NCBI GenBank assembly: GCA_963847665.1
Contig: CAWKAO010000003.1
Span: 569,362 to 633,361 of the forward strand
Reading direction: 5' to 3'
DNA: 64,000 nt
Source: an uncultured Actinomycetes bacterium
GTDB lineage: Bacteria > Actinomycetota > Humimicrobiia > Humimicrobiales > Humimicrobiaceae
This document shows positions 4,316 through 61,002 of the stretch, in pieces. Every line of letters begins with the position of its first letter. The stretch's first letter is position 1. The position numbers and the translations under genes were made by a program. The notes beneath the pieces were generated by a model. The model was given only the letters and a program-made list of their open reading frames with translations, searched no databases and was not told where the DNA came from.

Positions 4316-4370
4316 TCATTAAGATCTTAATTATTAAATGCTGGATTGATATAAATATAAAGGGATAAAA

Positions 4371-5333: not shown

Positions 5334-5370
5334 AATTATATAAACTTTTTTAAGGGCAAGGATATTTTAA

Positions 5371-18462: not shown

Positions 18463-18715
18463 CCTTACTTCAATTTATTAAAATATTAAAAAGAATACAA
18501 GAAATACTTGAATAAGCCTGCTCTGTTTATCCTGTGTTTTTTAGATAAAGATAAACCAGCTGTAAAACTAAATAAAAACAGTGTTAATATTTCCCTGGCT
18601 GCTTTATAATAAATCCTTGATAAGGACTTGAGATATGGCCTTATTTAGTGCATTTATGATATTTGAAGGTGTGCACATTTTGTATAATATCTCACAGATG
18701 ACAAGGAGAAAAAAG

Positions 18716-28938: not shown

Positions 28939-28959
28939 TATAAGTCTGGGAAACAAATT

Positions 28960-37010: not shown

Positions 37011-38169
37011 ATGAATGATATAAGTGATCTTTCAAGGGACATGAAAAGCATACTTGATTATAAAGCTACAGATAAAATGATGATAAGCCTCTATCTGAAC
37101 GTAGATGCTGCCAGGGTCTTGAAAAAAGATTTTTTAACTAGCCTTAATTCAATGATTGTAAATACGAGATCTGAAATAGAAAAATATGGTAATTACAGCA
37201 AAAGCCAGAAGAAGAACATTTCAGACCTGATGGAAAAGATAAAGGTATATATAAATGAGACATTTTTACCTGGGACAGCAAAGACATTATTGCTATACGT
37301 GGGTGAGGATGGTACCTGGAGCGAAGTAAAGCTTCCGATCATACTGAAGGACAAGATCATAATAGATCCTAAACCACATACCCAGGTCCTAAGGTCATTT
37401 CTAAATAATGTAATAAGATACGGTATCCTTTTGATTGATAGAGAAAAGGCCCAGATATATCTTGCATATCTTGGTGAGATCAAAGGATATCTTGGAGCTT
37501 TTATAAGTGATGTGCCGCCAAAAGTGAACTTCAGGAGGGAGGCTGCATTCAAGGAAAAAAATATCCTCAGCAGGATAGAGGAAAAACTTCATCATTTTTT
37601 TAAAGCCATCAATAGCCGGACCATGCAGCTTTTAAGGGAAGGAAAATTCGATAACCTGATACTTGCTGGCAGAAGTGACGTACTTTCGCAATTCAATAAT
37701 TACATGCACAGTTTCCTTCAGCAGAAATGCATAGGCAGTATCCTTGCAGAACCTGATGACGCACCTCGTGAAATCAGCGAGAAGGCGAAGGTGCTTATAC
37801 AGGAATACGAAACCGGGTTAAAAAGTGACATGATAGACAGGCTTATTAGACGAATACAATCCTAATGGAACAGGTGTTCTTGGTGTAAAGGCAGTGATCG
37901 GTTCCCTGATGCTTGAACAGGTAAGGACCCTTTTAATCGATGCAGATTTCTCTACACCGGGTTATGTCTGCGAGAGCTGTGGTTTTATCACAGTAGAAAA
38001 AAAAGAGGAGTGCCCTTACTGCAAGGGAGATCTTTTATTCTATAATGATATAACCGATGAAATAATAGAGGTCGCACTTAAACAAAACTGCGAAGTATTT
38101 GACGTATCTGCAAACCAGAGGCTTATAGAAGCAGGGAACATCGGGGCGATCTTGCGGTTTAAGCTGTAA
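37011..38169 (+). pseudogene. bacterial eRF1/Pelota-like (baeRF1-type) protein with C-terminal zinc ribbon, interrupted by an apparent +1 frame break at about 37838-37846
   Basis: The central domain resembles eRF1/Pelota domain 2 but lacks GGQ. After DMIDRL (frame 3) the conserved continuation LLDEYNPNGTGVLGVKAVIGSL... is in frame 1, paralleling eRF1 [23 protein letters not shown]. A CxxC...CxxC ribbon is inserted in the C-terminal domain. Confidence 0.55.
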
Positions 38170-39375: not shown

Positions 39376-39544
39376 AAATTATATCATAAAAAAATCCATC
39401 TAAAAAAGAACCTGCAAACTATATGAGTTTTTTTATCCATCGGATGTTCGAGCCTATAAGAAAAAAAGGAACCAGGATGAAGCCCTGGAAGAACTTAAAA
39501 AAATGCCGGAAAACAATTTGATTCGGAACTTGTCGATCTTTTTG

Positions 39545-40599
39545 CTAATTGATCTTTCTTACTGAACCCCTTATTACGAGGTGAGGGTCAAAGACTATTT
39601 TTTCAATCACCTTTTTGTTTGGGTTCTCGATATTTTCTATCAATATCCTTGCACTCTGTATGCCTATCCTTCTCTGGGCTGGTGGATAGTTGTGAGCGGA
39701 GGGGTTAATGCGCTCGTGACTTTGATATTGTCATAGCCTATGATGCTGTAATTTACTGGAATATTAAAATGAAGTTCATTTGCTACACTGTAGACTCCCA
39801 GGGCTAAAAGGTCACTGATTGTCAGTATACTGGTAAAATCCAGGCTTAAGTTCTGTTCATTCTCAGTAAGCAGGTTTTTAAAGACTCCATAACCGCCATC
39901 CATTGAGAGTTCTTTTGCCCTCAGTATCAGATCTTCCCGCGGTTTCAGGCCATGCTTTTTCATGGTCCTGAAAAATGATTCGACATACTGTCCGGCAAGG
40001 GAAGTATCGTAAGGGCCGATAAAAAGCAGGATGTTTTTATGGCCATTATTTATTAAATATTCAAGAGCGATTTCGGCACCCTTCCCATGGTCGGTATATA
40101 CATAGCTGATATTTTCATATCTGGGTAGACAGTCCAGTATAACGGTGTTTATGTTGTTTTCTATCAGAAATTCTATATTTTTACTTTTATCATCAATGGG
40201 TGAAATAATTATCCCGTCTACTCTTTTGGAAAGCATAGACAAGATATTTCTTCGCTCACGTTCATTGTCATAGTTCGAATAGCTCACAAGCATTGAGAAT
40301 TTTTGCTCATTTAACACTTCCCCTATAGAGCTTAAGACTTCTGTATAAAAAGGGTTGTTGAGGTCGTTTAAAATAACGCCTATGGTATTTGTCCTGTTCT
40401 GCCTTAGTCCCCTTGCAAGTGAATCCGGATAATAGTTATATTCTTCTGCCAGCTTTGTTATTTTTTCTATTGTCTCCGGGCTGGTCCTCGGGTCATTTGA
40501 TAGAGCCCTTGAGACAGTTGAAGGGGCGACCCCTGCGATTTTTGCGAGATATTTAATAGTGACTTTTTGGTGGTTTAAATTTTCATCTGTACTTGACAT
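39545..40599 (-). pseudogene. LacI-family transcriptional regulator, frameshifted near 39660-39670
   Basis: N-terminal HTH (IKYLAKIAGVAPSTVSRALSN) and a sugar-binding domain run through TTIHQPREG*. The conserved LacI C-terminus (GIQSARILIENI...VIRGSVRKIN) continues in another frame to 39545. Confidence 0.75.
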
Positions 40600-40630
40600 A
40601 AAAAAAGTAAGATCCTATAATACAATCGTT

Positions 40631-40644
40631 TCCACAATTGTGGA
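40631..40644 (+). promoter_or_regulatory. 14-bp perfect palindrome TCCACAATTGTGGA in the divergent LacI/methyltransferase intergenic region (candidate operator)
   Basis: Perfect dyad flanked by partial AATCG..CGATT symmetry. It lies between the divergent LacI-family gene and the methyltransferase operon. Confidence 0.35.
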
Positions 40645-40730
40645 ATCGATTTAAATTCTATATTTCATTGTATGTTTTGTCAATAAATCTTTTATCTACA
40701 GTAATTAATATTAAAAGAAGGTATAACAAA

Positions 40731-41819
40731 ATGCAATTTGAGAATCTAGGTTTTACCCCCGACAAGAAAAGACTGCTTTCAGCTTTAGGAGACGAGATAC
40801 CTGATAAGGTCCCGCTTTTTGACAACTATATCGATGATAAGATCGTAGAAAACATACTCGGTTATAATGCTGGTAATACCTGTGCAGCAGTCGGTGATCC
40901 ATTCAGAGGTGATGAGAGGGCAATAGTCGAAGGTGATGTCTGTGTTCCCATGGATCCTAAGGATTTTATAAAGCTCTGCAATACAATCTGCCAGGATACG
41001 ATCATGCTTGAGCATGCATTCGTTCCTTACAGGATAATAGGTAAAAGCGGCAGGCCCGAAATTATAAATGATGGCAGGATAAAAAACAGGAAAGACTGGG
41101 CAAAAGTCATAATACCCTCAGATGATGATATCAATGAGAGGCTGTTTTACCTGAAAAATTATTTAGAAGCCGTAAAAGGAACTGAAATAGCGGTTACCCT
41201 CCAGACTGGTAATTTTTTTCTCACACATTATCATAACCTGAATGGCTCAGATTTCTTTTCACTTATCTATGACGACCCTGCTCTTGTCCAGGAGATGCTT
41301 ACAGTATCGACAGACTATTTTTCAAAATATGTAAAGGAAGCGCTAAAGCTGGGTTTTGATGTTTTTATGGCCGGTGATGATGTCGCATATAAGAACGGAC
41401 TAATGATAAACCCGGAACATTTCAAGAAGCTTTATAAACCTTTAGCCGAAAAAATATATGAACCGGTACTTAACGCAAATATCCCGATCATGTTTGATTG
41501 CGACGGAAATCCTGAAGAAATAATAGGTATGATAATCGAGCTTGGGTGCAGCTGCCTGTTCCCGATAGATGCAAATGGCATGGATTATAGAGCTGCCAAG
41601 AAAAAATATGGCAAGAAGCTCTGCCTCTATGGAGCAATAGACACGGACCCTCTAATAAGAAATTCAGCCAAAGAAGTCGAGGCTTATGTAAAAGAAGTCG
41701 TCGAAACGATGAAAGTAGGAGGTAAGTATATTGCAGGGACAGTCAGTTCGGTAAACGAGATACCGTTTGAAAACTATGTAACAATGATAAATACAATACA
41801 TAAATACGGGCAATATTAA
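40731..41819 (+). CDS. URO-D superfamily methyltransferase (MtaA/MtbA/CmuA-like corrinoid-dependent methyltransferase)
   Basis: About 360 aa after the internal start MQFENLGF. The profile matches uroporphyrinogen-decarboxylase-like methylcobamide methyltransferases, and the gene sits first in an operon with MttB homologs and a corrinoid protein. Confidence 0.65.
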   Translation: MQFENLGFTPDKKRLLSALGDEIPDKVPLFDNYIDDKIVENILGYNAGNTCAAVGDPFRGDERAIVEGDVCVPMDPKDFIKLCNTICQDTIMLEHAFVPYRIIGKSGRPEIINDGRIKNRKDWAKVIIPSDDDINERLFYLKNYLEAVKGTEIAVTLQTGNFFLTHYHNLNGSDFFSLIYDDPALVQEMLTVSTDYFSKYVKEALKLGFDVFMAGDDVAYKNGLMINPEHFKKLYKPLAEKIYEPVLNANIPIMFDCDGNPEEIIGMIIELGCSCLFPIDANGMDYRAAKKKYGKKLCLYGAIDTDPLIRNSAKEVEAYVKEVVETMKVGGKYIAGTVSSVNEIPFENYVTMINTIHKYGQY

Positions 41820-41839
41820 GATAAAGGGAAAGGACACAG

Positions 41840-43270
41840 ATGGCAAAAATGGAAGATTACAGGCTTGAAGGTGGCCTGTCAAAACAACAGATGGACCTGA
41901 TGCATGAGAAGGCACTGTGGCTTGTAGAAAATGAAGGGATTCATGTTCCTCACAGGGGTATTTTAAGTCTGCTTTCAGACCATGATGGAGTGAAGATAGA
42001 GGGGGAGACTGTTAAATTTAAATCCGATCTTGTAATGGCCGCTTTAAAGAATGCAAAGTTTCCACTTCCTGAATATGCAAAAGGACCTGATAATTGGGTC
42101 ATCTCTGCGGGTGCACACCAGACAAAGATCTTTGATCTGGAAACAAGAGTATTACGGGAAGCTAAGTTATCTGATCTGGTCGACATGATAAAACTAGGAG
42201 ATGCTTGCGACACAGTGGGTTCAGCTCCTCTTGTACCACTGGATGTACCCCCATATCTTGCAGAGATCTATATGCACAAAACTGCTTATGAATATTCCAG
42301 GTTTAGGGCTAATGATATGTTTGAACATGACCCCAGGCCAACTATAGAAGCTGCAGAGTATATATATGAGATGTCAAAAGTGGCTAAAAAATGGTTTGCG
42401 ATAGGTCTCTATATGATAAGCCCAAGGGGGTTTGATAAAAAAGAACTGGATATAGTCTACAGGTTTTTGGACCGGGGTGTACCGATGTGGGCAGGGACAC
42501 TACCTATTGCAGGAGTAAATGCCCCCATTACGATGATAGGAGCAATGATCCAGAGCATGTTTGAGACTTTTGGATGCCTTGCAATGTTGAACCTGATAAA
42601 TACAAAATCATATAATTACATCCAGGTCATAGACAGTTTTATTGCTCATCCTTTTGATATGAAATATTCGACATTTACCTATGGTTCTGCTGAAGACATA
42701 CAGGGAGCCCTATACAAGATTTCTCTCCATAAATATTACGGTATTCCGATTTCTATAAAATCACTCCTCACCAATGGCAAAGAACCTGGAGATGCACAAT
42801 CTGCATTTGAAATAGCCGCTTTTACTCTTTCAGCAGCCCTGGCAGGAGCAAGGATATTCAGGTGTGCAGGCCTGATGTCAAGTGGCGAGACATATTCTGG
42901 AGAGCAGGTCGTGATTGCCAAAGAGACCGTCGATTATATTAAGAACCTTATAAAATCAAGGGAGTTCTCTGATGAAAGACTGATGGTAGAAGAAATTGCT
43001 GCAGTAAAAGCTGGGCAAAGCTTCATCGGAAGAAAAAGCACCATAGACCATTACAGGACAGAATACTGGCAGCCGGACCTGTTTACGCATTCAAATCTTG
43101 GTCAGTGGCAGGAAATGGGTTCCAGGTCCCTCTGGGATAATGCAAATGCTAAGGTAAAAAAACTGATTAAAGAACACTCTTATATGATAGAAATGGATAA
43201 GAAGCAAGAACTGGATAAGATACTTGAAACAGCGAAAAAAGATACAAAACTTATGGCTGCATATAACTAA
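41840..43270 (+). CDS. MttB-superfamily (trimethylamine-methyltransferase-like) substrate:corrinoid methyltransferase, non-pyrrolysine type
   Basis: 476 aa, the length of MttB/MtgB-family proteins. Uninterrupted ORF with no in-frame TAG. Adjacent to a B12-binding corrinoid protein. About 50-60% identical to the next ORF by eye. Confidence 0.7.
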   Translation: MAKMEDYRLEGGLSKQQMDLMHEKALWLVENEGIHVPHRGILSLLSDHDGVKIEGETVKFKSDLVMAALKNAKFPLPEYAKGPDNWVISAGAHQTKIFDLETRVLREAKLSDLVDMIKLGDACDTVGSAPLVPLDVPPYLAEIYMHKTAYEYSRFRANDMFEHDPRPTIEAAEYIYEMSKVAKKWFAIGLYMISPRGFDKKELDIVYRFLDRGVPMWAGTLPIAGVNAPITMIGAMIQSMFETFGCLAMLNLINTKSYNYIQVIDSFIAHPFDMKYSTFTYGSAEDIQGALYKISLHKYYGIPISIKSLLTNGKEPGDAQSAFEIAAFTLSAALAGARIFRCAGLMSSGETYSGEQVVIAKETVDYIKNLIKSREFSDERLMVEEIAAVKAGQSFIGRKSTIDHYRTEYWQPDLFTHSNLGQWQEMGSRSLWDNANAKVKKLIKEHSYMIEMDKKQELDKILETAKKDTKLMAAYN

Positions 43271-43307
43271 AGTGTTTTGATTTAAAAGTCTTGGAATCAA
43301 GGGAGGT

Positions 43308-44744
43308 TTGATGAAGTTAGAAGAATATAAAGTGAGTGGAGGTTTAAATAAGGAGCAGCTTGATAAGATGAATGAAAATGCATTGTGGTTGTGTGAACAT
43401 GTCGGGATAAATATACCACATGCTGGCATAATAGATATCCTTTCAAGCTATGAAGGAGTAAAGGTCGAAAGTGGAAATTATGTAAGATTCAGTCCAGACC
43501 TTGTAATAAATGCTTTAAAAGAAGCCAAATATGACCTTCCAGAATATGCAAAAGATGAATGGATAATCTCTGCAGGAGCCCACCAGACTGCATGCTATGA
43601 CCTCGATAATATAGGGAGGCTTAAAGAGGCTGAGACAAAGGATCTGATTAATTTTATAAAATTAGGAGATGCTTTAGATACTGTAGGCTCTGCACCTGTT
43701 GTACCACTGGATGTACCTACTCATCTACAGCATATATTGATGCATAAAGTCGCATATGAGAATTCAAGAAGAAGATGCAATGATATTTTTGAGCATATGG
43801 ATAAGCCTACATACGAGTGTGCCATGTATGTCAATGAAATGGCCAAAGTTGCAGGAAAGAGATTTGCGTTTGGAATATGGATGATAAGTCCGCAATCCTT
43901 TGATGCAAAGAATCTGGAGGTTGCTTACAAGATGCTAGATAAAGGTGTACCTATGTGGGTCGCAACAATGCCTGTTGCAGGGGTATCGGCACCGATTACC
44001 ATGCTAGGTGCAGTACAGCAGAGTGTTTTTGAGTATCTCGCAGGTCTTACCATGCTTAATCTAATAAATAAAAAATCCTTTAATTACATTTCTCCTAACG
44101 ATGCATTTGAAGCAGATGCATTTGATATGAAATATTCCACTTTTGTCTATGGTTCAGTCGAATATACGGAACATACTTTATACCAGATCCCGCTCTGCAA
44201 TTACTATAATGTACCTGTTATGACCAAGGCCGCTCTGACAAATTCAAAGCAACCTGATGGCCAGGCAGCAGCAGAGATAGGCATGCATACGCTGATAGCA
44301 TCACTTATGGGGGCCAGAGCGTTCAGATGTGCCGGACTTCTTTCAAGCGGTGAAATATATTCAGGAGAATGGCTGGTTATAAATAAAGAGATAGTCGACT
44401 ATGTAAAAACTATACTTAAACCGCAGGAATTTTCCGAGGAAAGGTTATTAATCGATGAAATAGCTGCAGTAAAGGCTGGAGGTAGTTTTATAGGAAGAAA
44501 GAGCACAATGCAGCTTTTCAGGCAGGAATACTGGATGCCCGAGCTCTTTACCCATATGAACCTTGGACAATGGCAGGAAGCCGGTTCGAAGACGATGTGG
44601 CAGTACGCTCTCGACAGGGCCAAGAAATTAATAAAAGAGCACACTTATCAGATAGATCCTGATAAGAAAAAAGAGCTGGATAAGATATATGAAGCTGCAA
44701 AAAAAGATGCCAAGCTTGAAGATTCTTTCAGAATAAAAGTATAG
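43308..44744 (+). CDS. MttB-superfamily methyltransferase, second tandem paralog
   Basis: 478 aa, colinear with the preceding ORF (shared blocks AGAHQT, LGDA.DTVGSAP.VPLDVP, GRKST...YW.P.LFTH.NLGQWQE). Confidence 0.7.
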   Translation: MMKLEEYKVSGGLNKEQLDKMNENALWLCEHVGINIPHAGIIDILSSYEGVKVESGNYVRFSPDLVINALKEAKYDLPEYAKDEWIISAGAHQTACYDLDNIGRLKEAETKDLINFIKLGDALDTVGSAPVVPLDVPTHLQHILMHKVAYENSRRRCNDIFEHMDKPTYECAMYVNEMAKVAGKRFAFGIWMISPQSFDAKNLEVAYKMLDKGVPMWVATMPVAGVSAPITMLGAVQQSVFEYLAGLTMLNLINKKSFNYISPNDAFEADAFDMKYSTFVYGSVEYTEHTLYQIPLCNYYNVPVMTKAALTNSKQPDGQAAAEIGMHTLIASLMGARAFRCAGLLSSGEIYSGEWLVINKEIVDYVKTILKPQEFSEERLLIDEIAAVKAGGSFIGRKSTMQLFRQEYWMPELFTHMNLGQWQEAGSKTMWQYALDRAKKLIKEHTYQIDPDKKKELDKIYEAAKKDAKLEDSFRIKV

Positions 44745-44822
44745 AAGATAAAAATATTATTTGAAAAAAATAGTTATAAAAAATCACTATTAATAACAGT
44801 TAAAAAAATATATGGGAGGTAA

Positions 44823-45446
44823 TTGATGTTCGAAGATCTACAGAAAGCAGTTATCGAAGGAAATGAGGAAGAGGGACTTGCCCTGACAAACAAATATTTA
44901 AAAGATGGAAATAAAGCTGAAGATATTATAAAAGAGGGACTGGTCACAGGAATGAATGTCGTGGGAACAAGGTTTAAAGCCTATGAGATGTATCTTCCTG
45001 AGGTAATAATGTCTGCTAATGCAATGAAAAAATCAATGGAGGTGCTAAAACCTCTTATTGCCGAAGGCAGTGTCACTTCACTGGGAAAAATAGTCATAGC
45101 CACAATAGAAGGTGACCTGCATGATATTGGAAAAAATCTTGTATCGATGATGCTTGAAGGAGCCGGATTTGAACTTATAGATCTGGGAGTAGATGTACCG
45201 ATAGGTAAAATTGCGGATGCTGCAGTAAATAATAATGCAAAACTTGTGGCGATCTCCGCCCTGCTTACAACGACAATGATGGCTATGGAACCGGCGATCA
45301 AGGAGATCAAAAGACGGGATTCCGGAATAAAAGTCATGGTCGGCGGTGCGCCTCTTACAATAGATTTTGCGGAAAAAGCTGGAGCTGATGGTTTCGCACC
45401 TGACGCGCTTCGTGCAATAGACCTGGCAAAAAAATTATTAAACTAA
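44823..45446 (+). CDS. corrinoid (cobalamin-binding) protein of methyltransferase systems (MtgC/MtqC/MttC-like)
   Basis: N-terminal B12-binding helical cap plus a Rossmann B12-binding domain with the DxHxxG motif (GDLHDIGKN). Confidence 0.8.
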   Translation: MMFEDLQKAVIEGNEEEGLALTNKYLKDGNKAEDIIKEGLVTGMNVVGTRFKAYEMYLPEVIMSANAMKKSMEVLKPLIAEGSVTSLGKIVIATIEGDLHDIGKNLVSMMLEGAGFELIDLGVDVPIGKIADAAVNNNAKLVAISALLTTTMMAMEPAIKEIKRRDSGIKVMVGGAPLTIDFAEKAGADGFAPDALRAIDLAKKLLN

Positions 45447-45549
45447 TAAATGGCGATCTCGCAAGAAAATAATTTGATATTTTCATAATAGGGAGGTGAT
45501 GGAAAAAAGATTATTTTGGATTTAATATTACTAAGAAAAGGAGGAAACA

Positions 45550-46977
45550 ATGAAGAAAGCATTACTTATCATTTTGGTAATAGTTTTCACAGTTTCAATG
45601 GTTGCATTCGGAGTAGGCTGCAAACAGCAAGCTGCAGAGATAACTGCAGCTGAGTCGATGAGTGAAGAGACTACTACAGCCGAGACAATGGCTGAAGAAA
45701 CAACTGCAGCAGAAGCCGTAGAACAGAAAGTCTGCAGACTCTGGTTCTGGGGAGAAGATGAAGCTCCGGGGCTTACTGATTTTATGCAGGAAGTCGGGGA
45801 TATGTATACCGAGCAAATCGACCCCAATGTTACATGGGAGATAACACATGTGGATATTGACCAGCTTTATACAGGTTTTTATGCTGCTATAGAGGCAAAA
45901 GATGCACCTGAACTGCATTTGTTATGGGGCGGAGTCTTAGGTCTGGAACCTGCCTGGGCAGGTCTTCTGGCACCTATAAGCGATTATGTATCAGAGGACA
46001 CCCTATCCCACATCAGGCCGATCAACAGACAGGAAGGTTACTGGAACGGACAGCAATGGCTCGTACCCCTTTACCTGGATCCATGGCCATTAGCAATAAA
46101 CAGGCAGGTGTGGACCGACTCAGGTCTTGATCCTGACAATCTACCGGCTACATATGCAGAATTTGTAGAAGCAGTTATAAAAATAAAGGATGCAGGATTT
46201 ACTCCATGGGCTGTTGGTATAAAGGATGGTTACTATGGCGGCTGGTTTCCATCAATTCTTCAGTATCAGTTCTATAACAGCCCAAGTGATTACCACAGAG
46301 CTATAGCTGGTATGGAAGACCTTGGAGCAGCACCACATAGCGACTGGTGGTATCTGCTTGAAGAGCTCTATACTGTAGGTGCTTTTAATTCTGATGTAAA
46401 TTCTTTGAGCCTTGCAGAAGGTCAGGACCTTTTCCTTCAGGGAGATGTCGGAATGGTAATGAATGTTCAACCATCAATATCCTACTACTCTAGGGAGATG
46501 GGCGAAGACATGATAGATGTATTTATTCCACCTGTGGATTCCACAGCGTTTTATGCAGGAAAATGTCCAATACCTATGCAGGCACTTTCTATTCCTGCAG
46601 TAGCTAAGTACAAAGAAGAAGCCGGAAAATTCCTCGAGTTTTTCTACACTGAGGAGATCCAGAATATGCTTTATGAAAAAACTAGCGTATTTCCGGGTTC
46701 TGATTGGCTGGACGGAAATCTTATGAAGAATCCTACTGATGTTAAGCTGTATGACTGGCTCAACAATAATGCTGCAATGACATACGTATGGCAGCATCCA
46801 GGGGCTCTTGAAGAAGCAGCTTACGCTATTACGCAGGAACTGCTTGCAGGAGATATAGATGCGGACCAGGCAGCTCAGAAATATGCAGATGCAGGAGAAA
46901 AGTGGAGAACTGAGAATCCTGAAGCAGTCAAAAACTTTGAGATCTGGGCAAATGAAGATATGCCGTTTATGCCTTAA
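45550..46977 (+). CDS. extracellular solute-binding lipoprotein, ABC family 1 (CUT1-type)
   Basis: Lipobox GVGC, an acidic A/E/T-rich linker, and an SBP_bac_1-like domain. Followed by two MalF/MalG-type permeases. Confidence 0.8.
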   Translation: MKKALLIILVIVFTVSMVAFGVGCKQQAAEITAAESMSEETTTAETMAEETTAAEAVEQKVCRLWFWGEDEAPGLTDFMQEVGDMYTEQIDPNVTWEITHVDIDQLYTGFYAAIEAKDAPELHLLWGGVLGLEPAWAGLLAPISDYVSEDTLSHIRPINRQEGYWNGQQWLVPLYLDPWPLAINRQVWTDSGLDPDNLPATYAEFVEAVIKIKDAGFTPWAVGIKDGYYGGWFPSILQYQFYNSPSDYHRAIAGMEDLGAAPHSDWWYLLEELYTVGAFNSDVNSLSLAEGQDLFLQGDVGMVMNVQPSISYYSREMGEDMIDVFIPPVDSTAFYAGKCPIPMQALSIPAVAKYKEEAGKFLEFFYTEEIQNMLYEKTSVFPGSDWLDGNLMKNPTDVKLYDWLNNNAAMTYVWQHPGALEEAAYAITQELLAGDIDADQAAQKYADAGEKWRTENPEAVKNFEIWANEDMPFMP

Positions 46978-47006
46978 TCTCTATTCAAAGTCAAAAGAAC
47001 TTTAGC

Positions 47007-47036
47007 AGGAAAAGATCTGGTACCGGTAGAATATTA
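47007..47036 (+). terminator. intercistronic stem-loop (12-bp perfect stem) between the SBP and permease genes; partial terminator/attenuator
   Basis: CTGGTACCGGTA gaatat TACCGGTACCAG, followed by a T-rich but interrupted tail. Confidence 0.4.
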
Positions 47037-47081
47037 CCGGTACCAGAAAGAAGTTTGTAGTTTTATTTGGTTATTTAATAT

Positions 47082-47963
47082 ATGAAGAATAAAAAAAGAG
47101 AAAATCTAAAAGGTTTTTTATTTATTGGTCCTACGTTGGTATTTATACTGATAGTATATTTTTATCCACTTGTCCAGAATTTTATTTACAGCCTTAGAGA
47201 CCTGAGTCTTCCCGGAAGGCCTTTTTCAGGTTTCAGGAACTATTACCTTATGTTTAATGATGAGATCTTCTGGATATCCATTAGAAACAATGCAATATTG
47301 ATCTTTGTATTGGTACCTTTACTTGTATTTATATCACTTATATTTTCAGTACTTCTTTTTGAAAGGATAAAAGGTTGGAAGTTTTACCGCGGTACACTGC
47401 TTCTTCCATATATAACATCTATAACTGCAGTCGGTCTTTTCTTTTCCCTCTTTTTCCAGGGTAGAGGAATGCTAAACACTTTCTTCAAATTTATCCATCT
47501 AGACTTCCTGGTAGTAGACTGGCTCGGTTCAACTAAATTCGCCCTGCCTGCGATTATGCTTGTGATTCTATGGAGAGAGTTTGGATTTGGTACGATGCTC
47601 TTTCTTGCAAGGCTGACTACTGTGTCAGAAGAACTTTTTGATGCTGCAAAGATAGATGGTGCAAACTGGTTCCAAAGGCTGATACATGTAGTGATACCAC
47701 AGCTCGGTACTGTTATAGAGTTCTATGTATTCATTATGATAGTCACAATGCTTAGCTGGGTGTTCAATTATGTTTATGTAATGACCCTGGGAGGACCTGC
47801 AAGGAGTACATATGTGACTGAACTTTATATATTCCTGGAGGCATTTAAGATGAACAGGATGGGAGTCGCTGCGGCAGTTTCAATAATGCTTTTTATAATC
47901 ACTGCAGTACTTGCATTTGCATCCTATAAGTTCAGGACGAGGCTTTATCGTGAATACGATTAA
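47082..47963 (+). CDS. ABC transporter permease (MalF/UgpA-like)
   Basis: 6 TM helices with the EAA-loop region (LFDAAKIDGAN). Confidence 0.85.
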   Translation: MKNKKRENLKGFLFIGPTLVFILIVYFYPLVQNFIYSLRDLSLPGRPFSGFRNYYLMFNDEIFWISIRNNAILIFVLVPLLVFISLIFSVLLFERIKGWKFYRGTLLLPYITSITAVGLFFSLFFQGRGMLNTFFKFIHLDFLVVDWLGSTKFALPAIMLVILWREFGFGTMLFLARLTTVSEELFDAAKIDGANWFQRLIHVVIPQLGTVIEFYVFIMIVTMLSWVFNYVYVMTLGGPARSTYVTELYIFLEAFKMNRMGVAAAVSIMLFIITAVLAFASYKFRTRLYREYD

Positions 47964-47977
47964 AGAAAGTTAAATCT

Positions 47978-48847
47978 ATGAAAGACGCAAAAATTAAGAA
48001 AGTAAAACAAAAAATAACAGCCAGAAGAGTCTTTGCAGAGATACTAAGGCAGTTTTTACTTATTGTTGCGGTAGGTATTGTGCTTACTCCAATTGCCTAT
48101 ATTATAATAGCATCTTTCAAGACAAAAATGGATTATGTCAAAAACCAGATCGGATTGCCAAATCCATTTGTCCTGGATAACTACAAAGCACTCTTTGCAG
48201 ATGGCCAGTTACTTATCTGGTTTAAAAATTCAGCAATAGTCACAATAATCTCTGTTGCTTTATCTATTATAATTGCAGCGATAGCTGCATATGCATTTAG
48301 CAGGATAAATTTTATCGGTAGAGAAAAAATATTTAATTTTATAATCGCACTTATGATAATACCGCCAATCGTTATGATAATACCTCTTTTCGTGCTTGCT
48401 ACAAGAGCACACCTTGTAAACACTTACTGGAGCGCAATATTGATCTATACGGGACTTATGCTTCCATTTAACATTTATCTCTTGCGTAATTTCTTTGTGA
48501 CCATCCCTGAGTCTATAGTAGATTCTGCCAGGATGGACGGGTGTGGTGACTGGGGGATCTTCATGAGGATAATAATCCCCCTGTCAAGGTCAGCACTGAT
48601 CACCCTTATAGTCGTCAGTGTGCTCTGGGTCTGGAACGAGCTTCTTATTGCACTTATATTTCTACAGAGAGAAGAGCTTACTACTCTTATGGTAGGCCTG
48701 ATTAGATTTCAGGGAAGGTTCAGGGTAAACCAGCCTGTAATACTTGCTGGCATTTTTGCTTCTATGGTGCCAATGATAATAATCTATCTTATCGGTCAGA
48801 GATTCTTTGTAAGAGGTCTGACAGCTGGTGCCTTGAAGGGTGAATAA
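47978..48847 (+). CDS. ABC transporter permease (MalG/UgpE-like)
   Basis: 6 TM helices with EAA-like DSARMDGCG. Confidence 0.85.
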   Translation: MKDAKIKKVKQKITARRVFAEILRQFLLIVAVGIVLTPIAYIIIASFKTKMDYVKNQIGLPNPFVLDNYKALFADGQLLIWFKNSAIVTIISVALSIIIAAIAAYAFSRINFIGREKIFNFIIALMIIPPIVMIIPLFVLATRAHLVNTYWSAILIYTGLMLPFNIYLLRNFFVTIPESIVDSARMDGCGDWGIFMRIIIPLSRSALITLIVVSVLWVWNELLIALIFLQREELTTLMVGLIRFQGRFRVNQPVILAGIFASMVPMIIIYLIGQRFFVRGLTAGALKGE

Positions 48848-48920
48848 AAAGAAAAAATAATAAAATGTCCGATTTTTGTGATTTAGAATAAAATATCTAA
48901 AAAAAATTCCTGGAGGAGAA

Positions 48921-50046
48921 ATGAAAAAGGATAATAAAAGGACTGTAGAGATCGAAATAAAGATAAAACAGGTTAGGGAAGTCATAGGATCTAATGATCT
49001 TTCAGGAATCCTGCTAACACAACAGTATAATATTTACTGGCTGACGGCGGGAGGCAATAACCATGTCCTCTGGGATGATCAGTATGGTATTATCGGTATC
49101 CTTATAACCAATGACAGAGCTATAGTACTGGCTGAAAACGGTGATATCTGGAGGGTAAGGGATGAGGAATTTTTTAATTATCCTTTCGAATATATTAAAT
49201 ACGAATGGTATGCTTCAAACCATGCAGCTGAAGCAAAAAAGATCGCAGGGAATGGCAGGTTTGGAACTGATTCTTTCAATCCCGGATTTGATGACCAGGT
49301 AGATATCAATCCGTTATTGAGCCCATACAGGTCAGTCTTTCAGCCATATGAGGCCGAGAGGTATTTAAAACATGGCAGGTTCATTGCAAGAGTGATAACA
49401 GATGTATGTATGTCATCCAAACCTGGAATGCGGGAAAACGAGATCGCTGCAATGTTTGCATCTGAAAGCATAAAAAATAACTATACTATATTTGTCCAGC
49501 TTCTAGGCAGCGATGAAAGATCACTCAAATACAGGCATCAGGTCGTTACGGATAAAAGAATGGAAAAGCATTACAGTTTTTGTGGAGTAGCAAGATACCA
49601 GGGATTTACCTATCCTGTCAACAGGGTCGTATCATTTGGAGAGCCGGATAAAAAACTTCAGGAAAACAACAGGAAAATAGAGACTGTTTATGCACTTCTT
49701 AATAAAAATGCGAAAATAGGCACAAACCTCAGTGAAATATATAAAAAACTGCCAGATATTTATGAGACGGCTGGAATTGAAGAAAGATGAATGGAGGAAC
49801 CATTCTATAGGTGGCACAACAGGATACATGCCGCGTGAAAACCAGCTTATGGATGGTGTAGACTACGAAATAAGGGAAAACAATATGATAGGCTGGAACC
49901 CTTCCCTTCCGGGAGTAATGGCTGAAGATGTCTATTTCAGGACTAAAGATGATATGGAGTTTGTCACCTGGGACGACAGGTGGCCCTCACAAAAAGTAGA
50001 TGCTGAAGGTGAAGAGGTGATCCGTCCTGCAATACTGGTCTTATAG
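48921..50046 (+). pseudogene. M24-family creatinase/prolidase-like hydrolase, frameshifted at about 49785 (extra A in an A-run)
   Basis: ORF 48921-49790 has a creatinase-N-like domain plus the start of the pita-bread domain. ORF 49732-50046 carries the C-terminus (WRNHSIGG...). Removing one A from GAAGAAAGATG restores AGIEEDEWRNHSIGG. The canonical metal-binding His/Glu residues are only partly conserved. Confidence 0.7.
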
Positions 50047-50116
50047 CTCAATGATCATAAATAATTAAAATGTTCGTTATTTTATACTAGTAAGAAAATA
50101 AGAAAGCAGGCTGTTA

Positions 50117-50497
50117 ATGAGGTTGATAGATTCAAGATTTTTAAGAGATGGCGCTGTAGATCATCCTTATGAGGATAATCCCGGTTTTATTGCAAAGATC
50201 AATACATTCTTTTACTCCAGGGATAAAAAATCTGTCATGGGATACTGGGAAGCACCGGTGGGCTGGTTTACTGCTGAGATAGGGGAGCAGAGTGAATTAA
50301 ACTATATTGTTGAGGGTAGCATAGAGTTGATCGATCTCAAAACGCAAGAAAAGAAGATCACTGCTAAAAAAGGAGATGTTTTTCTTGTAGAACCGGGTGA
50401 TGATCTTAAGTGGGTCGTGACAGACCCGATCAGGACGATCTTCTTCATCTATCCCGCTTCTAAGGAAATTGTAGATTTTTTCAAAAGTTTAAAATAA
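50117..50497 (+). CDS. small cupin-fold protein
   Basis: 126 aa with a typical cupin beta-barrel pattern (GDVFLVEPGDDLKW). Confidence 0.5.
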   Translation: MRLIDSRFLRDGAVDHPYEDNPGFIAKINTFFYSRDKKSVMGYWEAPVGWFTAEIGEQSELNYIVEGSIELIDLKTQEKKITAKKGDVFLVEPGDDLKWVVTDPIRTIFFIYPASKEIVDFFKSLK

Positions 50498-50527
50498 CTA
50501 TATGATCATCAAAAAGAGGTGAAAAAA

Positions 50528-51553
50528 ATGCTTAAAATGGGAATCATAGGTATGGGGAAAATGGCGGTAGCGCATGCTGATTGGATCATAGCCAATAAGG
50601 ATATGGAACTTGTAGCAATATGTGAAAAGAACGAAGCAAGGCATGAAGAGATAAAAAAGCAGTACAATGTACCTGTTTTTTCTGATGTAGATGAAATGCT
50701 GAAAACTACCGGTCTTGACATGGTGGTGATAGTCACCACAAATGAGGTACATGAGATGCTGACCATAAAAGCACTCAACAGTGGAAAAGATGTAATCGTT
50801 GAAAAACCCATGAGCATATCTTATGAGAGTACCCAAAAGATGATAAAAGCAGCAGAAAAAAATAAAAAACAGATCTTTGTCCACCAGTCAAGCCGATGGG
50901 ACAGGGATTTTCTTTTAATAAAAGACATGATAGCTTCAGGACTTATAGGCGATATCCTGGTCTTAAAGACTTTTGTGATGTACTGTGATGAAGGATGGCC
51001 CAGCTGGGGAATAGACGGTATGGGGAATCCATGGAGGATAAAAAAAGAATTTTACGGAGGCATGCTTCTTGACTGGGGTCCTCATCTTGTGGACCAGACA
51101 ATCCAGATAATGGGAAAAGACCCTGCAGGAGTCTATGGCATTCTCCAGAATGCAGTCTGGTCAAAAGAAGTGGACGATCATTTTTTGGCAATTCTTAAAT
51201 ATGATAATAATGTGTACTGCCAGCTTGAATGCAGTAATAACAGCAGGATAACACTTCCAAGATGGCATATCATAGGTACAAAGGGCACCATTGAAGTCAA
51301 GGGCAAACCCGAACCATTCTGGGATGAAGTCGAAATCAATTATATTAAAAAGAACGGAAAAAATGACATCCAGACCACAAAACTGGTCGGTATTAAAGAA
51401 TCAGGTCTTGAAGGCGGTTTTTATGATGACCTGATACCATATATGAAAGGCAAAAAGAAGGCTTTTGTCACGATGTATGAAGCAAGTAAGGTCATAAGGG
51501 TACTTGACCTTATCAGGGAGTCCAGCGAAAAAGGTGCTTTTATAAAATTTTGA
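50528..51553 (+). CDS. Gfo/Idh/MocA-family NAD(P)-dependent oxidoreductase
   Basis: N-terminal Rossmann GIIGMGKMA and a C-terminal Gfo/Idh/MocA domain. ATG at 50528 is preceded by SD AGAGGTG. Confidence 0.8.
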   Translation: MLKMGIIGMGKMAVAHADWIIANKDMELVAICEKNEARHEEIKKQYNVPVFSDVDEMLKTTGLDMVVIVTTNEVHEMLTIKALNSGKDVIVEKPMSISYESTQKMIKAAEKNKKQIFVHQSSRWDRDFLLIKDMIASGLIGDILVLKTFVMYCDEGWPSWGIDGMGNPWRIKKEFYGGMLLDWGPHLVDQTIQIMGKDPAGVYGILQNAVWSKEVDDHFLAILKYDNNVYCQLECSNNSRITLPRWHIIGTKGTIEVKGKPEPFWDEVEINYIKKNGKNDIQTTKLVGIKESGLEGGFYDDLIPYMKGKKKAFVTMYEASKVIRVLDLIRESSEKGAFIKF

Positions 51554-51584
51554 TAAATATTTTTCAGAAAGAGGAGCAGATAAA

Positions 51585-52941
51585 ATGTCAAAGAGAGCGG
51601 CACAATGGGGCGAGGAAGCAAAGACAATTTCAAAAATACTTGAGAAATCTCCTGATATAGACAAATCAAAGAGGATAACAACAGCAGAATTTAAAAAGCG
51701 ACAGCAGAATGTCATGGATGCTCTTTCTGCAAATGGAATAGACTGTGCATTTGTATACTCGAATGAACATTATAACGGGGATGTACCCTATCTGGGGGGA
51801 AATACAAACATCTCTATAGAACCGGTTGCAGGTGTTATCGGTAAGGGTGGTTTTCATATGCTTGCAGGACTGGAGGGCGGTTATGTAGCTGAGCAGCTTG
51901 CCGGAAGGGCAGGGATCAAGGTCCATAAAGTAGAGATGCTCAAGCTTGCTGATGAGGAATATCCGGTGGACGCAGAAAAGTTCGAGGATGTCATTGAAGA
52001 GGCAGCTGGAGGAAGGCCAAAAGTAGTAGGGTTGCTTACACCAAGGGCGGTCTTTCCGGTAGATATGTATGAATTCATTCTTGAATATCTTGGCAGTTCA
52101 GGAAAAGTGGTCGATGCCCAGGAACTTTACTATAAGATCAAATATGAAAAAAGTGAAATGGAAATGGACCTTATAAGGGATGCAAGCCTCATCTGTGATG
52201 AGATGCTAAAAGGGATGCTTGCAGTATTAAAACCCGGGATGCTGGAAACGGAAGTAGCGGGCTGGGGATATGCAATAGGCCAGGAGCTTGGTTCTGAAGA
52301 ATTTGGATTTGATGTAATGGTGACAGCAAATGAGGCAAACAGGACCCTTATAGGCAAAGCTTTAAACCGCCCGATAATCGAAGGTGATATTGTACATCTC
52401 GGAGTTGCCCCAAAAAGAGATGGACTTACCGCTTGTGAGCGGGTAAGCGTTGTCGCAACATCATGACCCTAAAAATATAACATCGCAGCAGAAATACTGG
52501 ATCAGTTTTATTGAAGAAGCTTTTAAAGTCGGTCTTGAAGCATATAAAAAAGTCGCTGCTGAAAATCTTCCTGCAAAACTGCAGGAGCAGGCTCTTGAAA
52601 ACTATTTTAAATCCAGGGAAGAAGAAGTGTCAAAAATGATCGGGAAAAAGATAGACCTGGTAAGGCAAAAACCATATACAGGCACACATAATGCGGGTTA
52701 TACAGAATGCCAGGAATTCTATGGTGCAATAACCCTTAACTCAGAAGAACCGCTTGGTAACAGGATAGTGACAATGCTCGATGTCGCTGTAAGGGGAGTC
52801 GGAAATAAATGGGATGATATCGTCATCCCTGGTCTTGATTTTGTACTTGTAGAAAAGACTCTCGGTAAGTTCGGTAAACAGGTGGAAGTATTAAATAAGT
52901 TACCAATAAATGTACAGCATCTGGTCGGGGCAAGGTATTGA
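51585..52941 (+). pseudogene. second M24-family creatinase-like hydrolase, frameshifted near 52450-52462
   Basis: ORF 51585-52466 has the creatinase-N domain plus the first half of the pita-bread fold. ORF 52450-52941 in the +1 frame carries the remainder (YTGTHNAGYTECQEF...). Confidence 0.7.
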
Positions 52942-52981
52942 AAAGAAATTATAGAATTATTAGTCAGGAGGAAAATAAAAA

Positions 52982-53944: not shown

Positions 53945-53983
53945 AAAAATATTCTTAAGAATTTTTATCAGGGAGGATAAATA

Positions 53984-54958: not shown

Positions 54959-55162
54959 ATATGCAGTAATATTGTATTTTGCTAAATAGTTTTTAATTTC
55001 TTTTTATTGGAGTAGCTGGTCGTAAAAGAAATAATGATAGAAGATGACAAATGAAAATATATTATCTGCTATTTAAATACGAAAAAATTTAAAAGTGTAA
55101 ACCTCAAAAGGAAATTTCTTTGCTAATCTAAAATAGTCAAAATATATACTTTTCTAACTAAT

Positions 55163-55945: not shown

Positions 55946-56023
55946 TTAATATATTGGAGTTTATTAATAAGCTTTACAGTTATAAAATTAGCAGTATAGA
56001 AATATTAAGTAGTAGGGATATAA

Positions 56024-56863: not shown

Positions 56864-56879
56864 TTAAGGGAGGTTTATT

Positions 56880-60859: not shown

Positions 60860-61002
60860 GGGCTGAGAAGAAATAGTTTTAAGGAGGTGATAGTTTGGTA
60901 TTCTTAATTTATTAATAAAAAAGGAGGTGATTTTTATAAATTAGTAGTGGGTAGTACGAACTTGGATTTTACATTAAATATTTTAGAGGAGGCAAATCTA
61001 TA

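Follow-up and report, generated by a model that had tools for sequence, protein, structure and literature searches.

The MttB paralog pair and its corrinoid protein

We analysed a 64-kb stretch of DNA from an uncultured Actinomycetes bacterium of the family Humimicrobiaceae (positions 569,362 to 633,361 of contig CAWKAO010000003.1, assembly GCA_963847665.1; hereafter the window), which contains a plus-strand gene array with a predicted role in corrinoid-dependent methyl transfer. According to the list of open reading frames (ORFs), the array extends from 40731 to 57920 and comprises ~17 genes on about 17 kb with intergenic gaps of 14-204 nt. It starts with the gene for a URO-D-fold protein, followed by two MttB paralogs, a corrinoid protein, an ABC importer and a set of catabolic genes, while a LacI-family regulator is encoded divergently upstream. 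The original prediction, made from the sequence alone, had described positions 40600-48847 as a corrinoid methyl-transfer island. All eight genes that it named are present with strong Pfam support, including the divergent regulator gene, which lies just outside its start at 40600. Its extent was too short, as the same-strand array runs on to 57920, and its gene list missed the conserved downstream half (M24-like proteins, E1 alpha/beta, a Zn-dependent alcohol dehydrogenase (Zn-ADH) and a GFO/IDH/MocA dehydrogenase), which holds the best clues to the substrate. All window ORFs of at least 150 aa were searched against Pfam, and NCBIfam was also used for the gene calls.

The two MttB genes lie in tandem on the plus strand and encode an upstream paralog of 476 aa (MttB-1, 'MttB1-type', 41840-43270; PF06253, 2.2e-49) and a downstream paralog of 477 aa (MttB-2, 'MttB2-type', 43311-44744; 1.4e-54). 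The proteins are 60% identical to each other and match profile positions 34-490 of 500 with 168.3 and 185.4 bits, respectively (cut-off 25). Besides PF06253, which was found in both paralogs, the profile search proposed with the original prediction also matched the B12-binding and PF01208 families at this locus. Both paralogs lack an in-frame TAG, as had been claimed: the ORFs are uninterrupted, the pyrrolysine (Pyl) position of the solved MttB (7xcl) aligns to Leu in both proteins, and the scores against the equivalog model of the Pyl-containing trimethylamine methyltransferase (TIGR02369, cut-off 525) are 170.3 bits for MttB-1 and 189.8 bits for MttB-2. No tRNA was found in the window.

Characterised enzymes were represented by solved MtgB and Pyl-MttB, with MtpB, MtcB, MtyB and MthB of Eubacterium limosum outside the comparison. 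The two solved proteins score just 71-94 bits (71-86 bits for MtgB against the pair; 71-76 bits for the best PDB matches of MttB-1), so that the pair is not near-identical to characterised MtgB, a possibility that the original prediction had raised against itself. A search with MttB-2 covered 1.84 billion representatives of 50%-identity clusters, and 3287 clusters belong to the MttB superfamily. Its own cluster has one representative (738 bits), and the next representative is 42% identical (366 bits). At least 150 other cluster representatives score at least 119 bits, which is above the solved characterised proteins, and more than 120 homologues of MttB-2 with 58-90% identity are present in public data. 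Judged by these sequence comparisons, the clade of the MttB pair is isolated and distinct from the known enzymes.

To place the duplication, a tree was calculated from the MttB copies of related loci that carry the same gene module (see below) together with four outgroup sequences and 100 bootstrap replicates; an unrooted version was made as well. Upstream and downstream copies formed separate clades in 96 of the 100 replicates, and the subfamily was monophyletic in all 100. With outgroup rooting, this separation indicates that the duplication is old and that the gene order has been retained. Both clades keep all residues that are invariant in the subfamily, and just 11 positions are fixed differently between them. 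In the related locus L030, the two MttB genes overlap by 4 nt. These observations fit two non-redundant roles, in which the paralogs may form a hetero-oligomer or act on successive or different methyl groups.

The substrate site of MtgB consists of Y97 and F356, which provide cation-pi contacts, and of R312 and H348, which bind the carboxylate; R312 is conserved in all characterised members (PMC13080624). Chain numbering in our HMMER alignment corresponds to the numbering of that study minus 2. In this low-identity alignment, the equivalent of R312 is Ser, Val or Ala in MttB1-type and Met or Ile in MttB2-type proteins, with an invariant Lys306 two residues downstream. H348 aligns to the invariant Arg339, with the invariant Tyr350 also close, while Y97 corresponds to Ala followed by a near-invariant His, and F356 to Ser or Thr. 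The invariant aromatic residues W84, Y350 and F338 lie within a few positions of the Y97 and F356 equivalents, and the alignment may be shifted there. The predicted pocket thus appears different from that of MtgB yet still basic, and the substrate therefore still likely bears an anionic group.

The gene for the cognate corrinoid protein (206 aa, 44826-45446, plus strand) starts 81 nt downstream of MttB-2 and encodes a B12-binding_2 cap (6.4e-22) and a B12-binding Rossmann domain (3.6e-27). Its DxHxxG motif, read directly as GDLHDIG, is the one reported in the original prediction. The closest NCBIfam models are MtgC and pyl_corrinoid, both under cut-off.

In having a non-Pyl MttB methyltransferase that loads a corrinoid protein (MT1) beside a DxHxxG corrinoid protein, the locus resembles MtgBCA of Desulfitobacterium hafniense (MtgB 2qne, 9yce), and the chemistry, transfer of a methyl cation from an onium-type donor to Co(I), is presumably the same. 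The differences are considerable. Apart from the low scores and the divergent site residues, the window has neither an MtgA-type methyltransferase that unloads the corrinoid protein (MT2) nor RamA nearby, and it combines two obligatory paralogs instead of one with a sugar-type importer and a large downstream catabolic branch. A second comparison is offered by E. limosum, in which MtpB, MtcB, MtyB and MthB work with shared MtqC/MthC, MtqA/MthA and RamQ, so that many non-Pyl MttB paralogs coexist and MT2 and activase need not adjoin them; with MthK-MthB, a substrate-modifying enzyme is encoded beside the MttB gene, as may be the case here (PMC12155760). The relatives of the present locus belong in contrast to a non-acetogenic lineage (metagenome-assembled genomes, MAGs, of Spirochaetota) with no Wood-Ljungdahl genes in view, and in place of a kinase, their partner genes encode M24-like proteins, dehydrogenases and E1/E2.

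The simplest explanation would be an ordinary betaine system, in which the MttB proteins are equivalent to MtgB, MtpB, MtcB, MtyB or MthB and are surrounded by unrelated genes. All characterised non-Pyl members use an acidic quaternary amine (PMC12155760, PMC13080624), Arg339 and Lys306, both invariant, could provide a binding site for a carboxylate or phosphate, and MtgC is the best NCBIfam model for the corrinoid protein. This is countered by the very low similarity to MtgB (86 bits) with the missing equivalents of R312, Y97 and F356, by the isolated 50% cluster, by the lack of a betaine-type transporter at the locus, and by the tight and repeated linkage of M24, E1 and ADH genes in several orders, which argues for one pathway. 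We therefore consider an ordinary betaine system improbable.

Operon layout, importer and conservation among relatives

The regulator gene is located on the minus strand (39664-40599 as assembled, 311 aa; 39544-40599 after the repair described below) and encodes a LacI-family repressor with a helix-turn-helix (1.6e-11) and a Peripla_BP_1 domain (4.6e-22). Its top NCBIfam matches are RbsR, PurR and CytR, each under cut-off, and its orthologues are 356-384 aa long. In the scan for sigma-70 consensus sites, a promoter TTGACA-17-TATAAT that matches in 12 of 12 positions was found upstream of the array at 40593-40621 (plus strand). It is followed by the 28-bp inverted repeat AATCGTTTCCACAATTGTGGAATCGATT (40624-40651; 93% complementary), a candidate LacI operator, and a promoter-like site for the regulator gene is present on the opposite strand at 40683-40655. 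LacI-type boxes TGGnAACGnTnCCA occur in the equivalent intergenic region of four relatives (L001, L004, L014 and L030). The exact core of the palindrome is not conserved among the other loci, where the looser LacI-type box alone recurs, and near matches to this core within the window are at chance level. Promoter, palindrome and divergent regulator would together form the classical layout of a repressor-controlled catabolic operon. As the genes are co-directional with short gaps, a promoter and palindrome lie upstream, and LacI-type boxes are present in the relatives, 40731-57920 is most likely a single LacI-repressed transcription unit.

The designation as an island needs correction: a mobile or compositional genomic island was rejected, since the GC content of 0.38-0.40 is like that of the flanks and the flanking genes are syntenic in L001.

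Three genes of the locus are interrupted by single-base differences. Relative to L001, a 1-base deletion near 39675-39700 truncates the LacI ORF, and one inserted base yields a protein of 351 aa that is collinear with L001. The genes of the two M24-like proteins, M24a and M24b, are split by +1 base near 49782-49788 and near 52464, and their repair gives 374 and 451 aa, respectively. The three repaired proteins are 76-84% identical to their orthologues from end to end with no further stops. This could mean that the locus is decaying, with pseudogenes for the regulator and both M24 proteins and an operon that is either non-functional or constitutive and truncated, and the public record indeed holds a truncated M24a product of 289 aa. 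However, one-base repairs suffice to restore full-length collinear proteins, and similar split genes are scattered over the window. The latter include ApbE (8356-9226), another Zn-ADH (28939-29980) and an old-yellow-enzyme-type (OYE) flavoprotein with Pyr_redox domain (60955-63145), which together with the three genes above amounts to about one per 9 kb. In addition, the source is a single 708-kb MAG contig, and the relative L001 is similarly fragmented in another gene. Decay of the locus thus seems rather unlikely, and indel errors of the long-read MAG assembly are a likelier cause of the frameshifts than operon-specific decay.

Downstream of the corrinoid protein, the operon encodes a family-1 (CUT1) solute-binding lipoprotein (45550-46977, plus strand; SBP_bac_1, 2.1e-21) with the lipobox GVGC and an Ala/Glu/Thr-rich tether. 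Its best PDB relatives are binders of xylo-oligosaccharides and sugars, at just 65 bits. The two following plus-strand genes (47082-47963 and 47978-48847; BPD_transp_1) encode MalF/MalG- or UgpA/UgpE-type permeases, with NCBIfam matches to UgpA/GlcT and GlcU/MalG/UgpE under the cut-offs. The importer is therefore of the sugar type and not of the OpuA/ProU type, as had been stated. It had further been noted that a cognate ATPase is missing. Indeed, none is encoded in the operon, and a UgpC/MalK/MsmX-type ATPase is found unlinked at 18635-19813 (plus strand; ABC_tran, OB_MalK, TOBE; UgpC subfamily, 483.7 bits, cut-off 432). As an argument for an unusual system this does not hold, since CUT1 operons are often without their own ATPase and share one of the MsmX/UgpC type. 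The protein encoded at 18635-19813 is, by its family, the probable shared energiser of the importer. In the gap between the lipoprotein and first permease genes lies a 13-bp GC-rich perfect palindromic hairpin (47016-47047). It is listed by the scan on the minus strand and, being palindromic, could equally form in the plus-strand transcript, where it might serve as an attenuator or stabilise the mRNA between the cistrons and so raise expression of the binding protein relative to the permeases.

For a gene-by-gene comparison, we used related loci (designated L001, L004, L030 and so on). The species-representative genome collection contains 22 loci of the MttB subfamily, mostly in MAGs labelled uncultured Spirochaetota and in a few labelled 'Actinomycetota', from cold-seep, hydrothermal and other sediments. 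The neighbourhood comparison that the original prediction had recommended revealed that the module recurs in about ten loci, mostly of uncultured Spirochaetota from marine sediments. It comprises M24b, E1 alpha, E1 beta, in some cases the URO-D gene, E2, Zn-ADH, M24a, the two MttB genes, the corrinoid protein, the solute-binding protein, two permeases and the divergent LacI gene, and is carried by L001/L002, L004, L011, L012, L014, L018, L022 and L030/L031, with a reduced form in L003 and L006, which are without E1/E2. L001/L002 and L024 share the gene order of the window and the flanking genes NrdR, PlsY, lipid A acyltransferase and P-type ATPase, with protein identities of mostly 77-91% (63% for the solute-binding protein). 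A compact form with the order LacI, M24b, E1 alpha, E1 beta, URO-D, E2, Zn-ADH, M24, MttB, MttB, corrinoid protein, solute-binding protein and two permeases is found in L004, L011, L018, L022 and L030/L031. The invariant core consists of the two MttB genes, the corrinoid protein and M24a. Since the gene set is constant despite differing order, the genes appear to serve one pathway rather than being chance neighbours.

The same MAGs hold many further MttB copies in varied contexts (L008-L026; L030, 1813-3288). A Pfam census of 131 unknown neighbours of these other subfamily copies was dominated by short-chain dehydrogenases (SDRs), parts of CUT1 importers, sugar-isomerase-like TIM barrels, FGGY kinases and AraC regulators. 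Two other subfamily copies lie near a glycyl-radical enzyme resembling pyruvate formate-lyase (PFL) and an aldehyde:ferredoxin oxidoreductase (L025, 130-2619; L017, 6761-8803), which fits strictly anaerobic fermentative hosts. Beside the module in L003, a distant third MttB homologue, with 24% identity to MttB-1, is encoded divergently on the minus strand (3391-5743), together with an SGL/NHL-type lactonase-like gene.

The URO-D-fold protein and the fate of the methyl group

The first gene of the array (40731-41819, plus strand) encodes a URO-D-fold protein of 362 aa that belongs to a small uncharacterised clade. Its start is likely the ATG at 40731 and not the TTG listed at 40638, as the orthologues are 362-363 aa long and the TTG sits in the operator. 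PF01208 is matched with 8.7e-20, by profile positions 161-346 alone, and the family is small (86 matches). Similarity to the methyltransferases MtaA and MtbA is confined to the C-terminal half (PRK06252, 54.6 bits, cut-off 244; TIGR01463, 50.2 bits, cut-off 235). The HemE equivalog model TIGR01464 is matched with 29 bits (cut-off 303), and the N-terminal half has no sequence alignment to UroD, which leaves the catalytic Arg/Asp/Tyr constellation of HemE without assigned equivalents. The predicted structure (pLDDT 92) was compared by Foldseek with MtaA (4ay7; TM score 0.68-0.73) and UroD (TM score 0.64-0.74), and the family profile reached 60.8 bits with MtaA, 42.7 bits with CdmB and 41.8 bits with UroD in the PDB. 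The zinc ligands H-x-C of MtaA (4ay7) align to D256-x-D258, the intervening Cys257 varies across the wider family, and no conserved downstream Cys that would complete the MtaA motif H-x-C...C was found in the family. Among the conserved residues of the clade, Asp, Arg, Tyr and His prevail over Cys.

The genomic context of this protein differs among the relatives. Its gene is located directly upstream of MttB-1 in the window, L001 and L003, and between E1 beta and E2 in the compact loci L004, L011, L018, L022, L030 and L031. In L030, E1 beta stops at 9999 and the URO-D gene starts at 10001, and its end overlaps the start of E2 by 4 nt. In L028, the gene of a relative with 38% identity (P0174) immediately precedes those of a corrinoid protein, a Pterin_bind MT2 and MTHFR, and eight more URO-D paralogs and a LacI gene adjoin. 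Within 10 kb of the relatives with 39-42% identity, which occur in sugar clusters (L027, 1362-13952; L032, 4096-17378), no corrinoid protein is encoded. Relatives with 60-62% identity occur alone.

Two of these contexts deserve a separate description. The metagenome contig NODE_3774 (L028, 1-19600) carries, besides the nine URO-D paralogs, LacI, corrinoid protein, pterin MT2 and MTHFR genes, a creatininase fragment and an octopine-dehydrogenase-like gene, and looks like a large uncharacterised multi-substrate demethylase locus. The sugar clusters of L027 and L032 contain an RpiR/SIS regulator, an FGGY kinase, a class-III aminotransferase, a creatininase-family amidase, a RhaM mutarotase and sugar isomerase-like proteins. 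L032 additionally encodes a full ribose-type ABC importer, and L027 just one permease of it. This context hints at a corrinoid-independent role of the URO-D clade in the catabolism of sugars or amino sugars.

In the original prediction, the protein was taken for a URO-D/MtaA-type methyltransferase that replaces the pterin-binding MT2 of described bacterial systems. The fold assignment was correct, while the specific role as an MtaA-type MT2 does not follow from the data: D-x-D stands in place of H-x-C, the scores are far under the cut-offs, and the fold is equally distant from MtaA and UroD. We weighed three roles and rank that of a third MT1 first, a non-methyltransferase tied to the E1/E2 branch second and an MtaA-like MT2 third.

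As a third MT1, the protein would take another type of methyl group, for instance that of a methyl ether on a sugar, cyclitol or enol, either from the same substrate or from an intermediate of its pathway and transfer it onto the shared corrinoid protein, with MT2 and activase encoded elsewhere. The characterised bacterial URO-D-family corrinoid enzymes MtvB, OdmB, VdmB, MtoB and CdmB are all MT1s (PMC13222342), CdmB is the second-best PDB sequence match, P0174 stands in a full MT1-corrinoid protein-MT2-MTHFR context, and relatives are found in sugar-catabolic clusters. On the other hand, the similarity to CdmB is limited to the C-terminal 140 residues (43 bits), the relatives in sugar clusters are without a corrinoid protein within 10 kb, and nothing at the locus indicates an O-methyl group on the substrate. 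Moreover, it is chemically difficult to cleave an aliphatic methyl ether with Co(I), and no enzyme is known to do so. We thus regard a third MT1 as a tentative option. The comparison with known O-demethylase and CdmBCA systems (PMC13222342) points in both directions as well: a URO-D-fold methyltransferase is likewise paired with a corrinoid protein, and the relative in L028 lies in exactly such a locus, but in those systems the URO-D protein is the sole MT1 with a pterin MT2 adjacent, whereas in the window it accompanies two MttB proteins and its similarity is marginal.

The protein could also be a cofactor-free decarboxylase or similar enzyme that, jointly with the E1/E2 and ADH branch, processes the carbon skeleton. 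The position of the gene between E1 beta and E2 in six loci, the fold match to UroD that is as good as that to MtaA, the conservation of Asp, Arg, Tyr and His instead of Cys, and the existence of relatives without corrinoid proteins are in line with such a role. It is less easily reconciled with the N-terminal half, which is unalignable to UroD by sequence, with the 29 bits of the HemE model and with the location next to MttB in three loci. Altogether, we hold this role to be doubtful.

An MtaA-like MT2 would pass the methyl group from the corrinoid protein to a thiol or another non-folate acceptor, such as a coenzyme M (CoM)-like thiol, sulphide or homocysteine, and would make the locus a self-contained MT1-corrinoid protein-MT2 system without a pterin enzyme. 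The gene is the first of the operon and directly precedes MttB-1 in the window, L001 and L003, MtaA is the top PDB profile match with a TM score of about 0.7, and no other MT2 is encoded in the window. Still, the zinc site H-x-C...C of the methanogen enzymes MtaA and MtbA, with which the protein shares the URO-D TIM barrel, is not conserved and the middle Cys is variable, the scores remain far under the cut-offs of both enzymes, and UroD fits the fold equally well. The gene is missing in L012 and L014, where the MttB pair and corrinoid protein remain, the relatives with 39-42% identity reside in corrinoid-free sugar clusters, and in the compact operons the gene is translationally coupled to E1 beta and E2, not to the corrinoid protein. 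Furthermore, CoM metabolism is not expected in a spirochaete. This role is accordingly unlikely.

Pfam searches of the window ORFs of at least 150 aa detected neither a RamA-type activase, in agreement with the original prediction, nor a pterin-binding MT2. RamA and pterin MT2 were also absent among the 25 commonest neighbour families and the largest neighbours of the other subfamily copies in the same MAGs. That these functions are unlinked had been presented as unusual; the same is seen in E. limosum with its shared MtqA, MtqC and RamQ (PMC12155760). One candidate for unlinked unloading is a stand-alone homocysteine-binding module of 307 aa on the minus strand (24023-24946; PF02574, S-methyl_trans, 2e-60), which resembles most the N-terminal half of YitJ, BHMT and the homocysteine domain of MetH and carries neither a pterin nor a B12 domain. 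In the split methionine synthase MtgBCDE of marine Rhodobacterales, an MttB-type MT1 feeds a small corrinoid protein that is unloaded by separate modules, and the PF02574 module MtgE can unload this shared protein (PMC12478193). It may be speculated that the module at 24023-24946 serves as an MtgE-like acceptor of the methyl group. The Rhodobacterales system is aerobic, specific for glycine betaine and equipped with the pterin module MtgD, whereas the homocysteine module of the window is located about 16 kb away.

Downstream catabolic genes and the candidate substrate

M24a (48921-50046, plus strand; Creatinase_N, Peptidase_M24; 374 aa repaired) is a 'pita-bread' protein of the creatinase/prolidase fold that accompanies the MttB pair more constantly than any other partner. 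With 64 matches, its family is tiny. The model of an orthologue (pLDDT 92) has the two-domain fold, and prolidase, creatinase and the ectoine hydrolase EutD are each matched with a TM score of about 0.75, so that the fold does not discriminate among them. Compared with the metal ligands of Pyrococcus prolidase, D209 falls into a gap, D220 is replaced by Pro, H284 by Gly and E313 by an invariant Asn, so that E327 alone is kept. The longer and divergent pita-bread protein M24b (51585-52941, plus strand; Peptidase_M24; 451 aa repaired) is conserved in L001, L004, L014, L018, L022 and L030, and in the HMM alignment with prolidase both Asp metal ligands are replaced, one by Gly and one by Cys. Both proteins are essentially without a match at the sequence level in the PDB or NCBIfam.

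From the loss of these ligands, M24a and M24b are predicted not to be metallopeptidases. Creatinase likewise has an M24 fold without dinuclear metal ligands and hydrolyses an amidine C-N bond independently of metal. As the M24 proteins are without metal ligands and creatinase works metal-free, it may be speculated, with low confidence, that they hydrolyse a C-N bond of the amidine or tertiary-amide type. The resemblance to creatinase and ectoine hydrolase is limited, in that the M24 proteins of the window are 14-19% identical to any solved structure. A role of M24b as a DddP-like lyase of dimethylsulphoniopropionate (DMSP) was considered and rejected: DddP keeps its metal site, while both Asp ligands are replaced in M24b, and in the fold search with M24a, DddP appeared just at rank 50.

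The genes for the thiamine-diphosphate-dependent E1 component, of the pyruvate/acetoin dehydrogenase type, follow at 52982-53944 (E1 alpha, plus strand; E1_dh, 1e-85; TIGR03182, 339 bits, just under the cut-off of 394) and 53984-54958 (E1 beta, plus strand; Transket_pyr and Transketolase_C; NF006667, 387.7 bits, above the cut-off of 321). A lipoyl E2 is present in L004, L012, L014 and L030, and no E3 was identified in the window. The last gene of the array (56880-57920, plus strand; ADH_N, ADH_zinc_N) encodes a Zn-dependent ADH that is closest to threonine 3-dehydrogenase and scyllo-inosose dehydrogenase (Tdh, 173 bits; IolM, 161 bits; under the cut-offs) and conserved in L004, L006, L011, L018, L022 and L030. 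The AcoABC system with butanediol dehydrogenase likewise has adjacent genes for E1 alpha/beta, a lipoyl E2 and a Zn-ADH from the polyol/threonine dehydrogenase family; the window differs from it in the lack of E3 and E2. The GFO/IDH/MocA protein (50519-51553, plus strand) is an NAD-dependent dehydrogenase of the sugar or cyclitol type according to Pfam, with NCBIfam matches to IolG-like and UDP-GlcNAc 3-dehydrogenase-like models at ~1e-32, under the cut-offs, and has counterparts in L001 and L014.

Taken together, we somewhat favour the view that the locus is a catabolic operon for a methylated solute outside the six substrates that are known for the MttB superfamily, which combines import, corrinoid-dependent demethylation and breakdown of the remaining skeleton. 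In the proposed sequence of events, the repressor would bind the palindromic operator, which overlaps the start site of the consensus sigma-70 promoter. The solute would be taken up by the tethered CUT1 lipoprotein and the two permeases, energised in trans by the UgpC/MsmX-type ATPase. Based on the homology to MtgB, MtpB, MtcB, MtyB and MthB, the two MttB paralogs would then transfer the methyl group to Co(I) of the adjacent corrinoid protein. Either the URO-D-fold protein or, with greater likelihood, a methyltransferase whose gene lies elsewhere could unload methyl-Co(III). Candidates for the latter are a pterin-type MT2 that methylates tetrahydrofolate and the homocysteine module described above. 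Reductive reactivation would depend on an unlinked RamA-type activase. M24a and M24b would cut the C-N bonds, Zn-ADH and the GFO/IDH/MocA dehydrogenase would oxidise secondary alcohols, and E1 alpha/beta, together with the E2 found in most relatives, would cleave an alpha-hydroxy- or oxo-ketone unit to acyl-CoA.

The company of these genes suggests not a simple betaine but an anionic methyl donor that is polyol-, cyclitol- or sugar-like and has a C-N bond open to hydrolysis. The original prediction had likewise concluded on a methylated substrate different from the known ones, and we arrive at the same conclusion from the equivalent of R312 in MtgB, which is not Arg, from the CUT1 importer and from the distance to the characterised members. 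The compounds considered were glycerophosphocholine, head groups of betaine lipids, O-methyl sugars or 4-O-methylglucuronate, pinitol- or rhizopine-like cyclitols, creatine and mycosporine-like amino acids, and none of them explains all genes.

Several points weigh against a catabolic operon for such a solute. No single known compound accounts for every gene, and the characterised members of the superfamily all act on an N-methyl ammonium group, so that a non-betaine donor would be without precedent. The mapping of the active site rests on a low-identity alignment (86 bits) that is possibly off by a few residues. The gene set is not invariant, as the URO-D gene is missing from L012 and L014, and E2 is absent from the window. 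Neither MT2 nor RamA was found in the 64-kb window or in the fetched relatives, and the three frameshifts relative to L001 have to be added.

A more far-reaching proposal, which we consider possible though well short of probable, is that the isolated MttB clade acts on a new class of donors, of the carbohydrate, cyclitol or amidinium type, that is abundant in marine necromass. Examples would be a methylated sugar or sugar acid, a methyl-inosamine, a pinitol-like cyclitol, a mycosporine-like amino acid or the head group of a betaine lipid. The paralog pair, the M24 proteins, the D-x-D URO-D enzyme and E1/E2 would then constitute an undescribed anaerobic pathway, by which non-acetogenic fermenters couple corrinoid-dependent demethylation with the hydrolysis of C-N bonds and the thiamine-dependent cleavage of C-C bonds.

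The enzymes are members of known superfamilies, while the MttB branch and the gene combination are uncharacterised. Literature searches aimed at this combination returned no description of it, and no described link between M24 or AcoABC-type enzymes and corrinoid methyl transfer was found. A paper that ties MttB to Spirochaetota was set aside, as it concerns a speculative HgcA interaction that is irrelevant here. Six physiological substrates of the MttB superfamily are known, all of them N-methyl ammonium compounds, and the assignment of substrates to 'MtxB' proteins is a recognised open problem both in the gut, where trimethylamine is related to cardiovascular disease, and in marine methyl cycling (PMC10653893, PMC13080624). 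The conserved and informative gene company, comprising a dedicated solute-binding protein of the sugar type along with a repressor, two atypical hydrolases and a system for C-C cleavage, makes the question of the substrate experimentally approachable. With a donor other than a betaine, the superfamily's chemistry would become broader, and methyl groups and carbon in anoxic marine sediments would have a new route via fermentative Spirochaetota and not via methanogens or acetogens. Should the donor turn out to be one more betaine, the system would nevertheless represent a seventh specificity and the first obligate paralog pair.

The remaining genes of the array seem to be accessory. A EutQ-like cupin of 126 aa (50117-50497, plus strand; Cupin_3, 2.6e-10) is variable, with homologues near the module in L013 and L022 alone. 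Two plus-strand genes lie where other loci have URO-D and E2, and encode a GNAT-domain protein (55163-55945; ~1e-5 to 1e-6 in Pfam) with an unmatched N-terminal region of 160 aa and a NagB/6-phosphogluconolactonase-like protein (56024-56863; nagB-like, 96 bits, under cut-off). Neither has homologues in the related loci, and the pair represents lineage-specific insertions. Outside the array, an ORF with a domain of baeRF family 10 (bacterial archaeo-eukaryotic release-factor-like, 4.4e-11) is located upstream on the plus strand (37011-37865) and has no counterpart at the syntenic position of L001. The array itself is followed by a convergent PFK gene (57975-59189).

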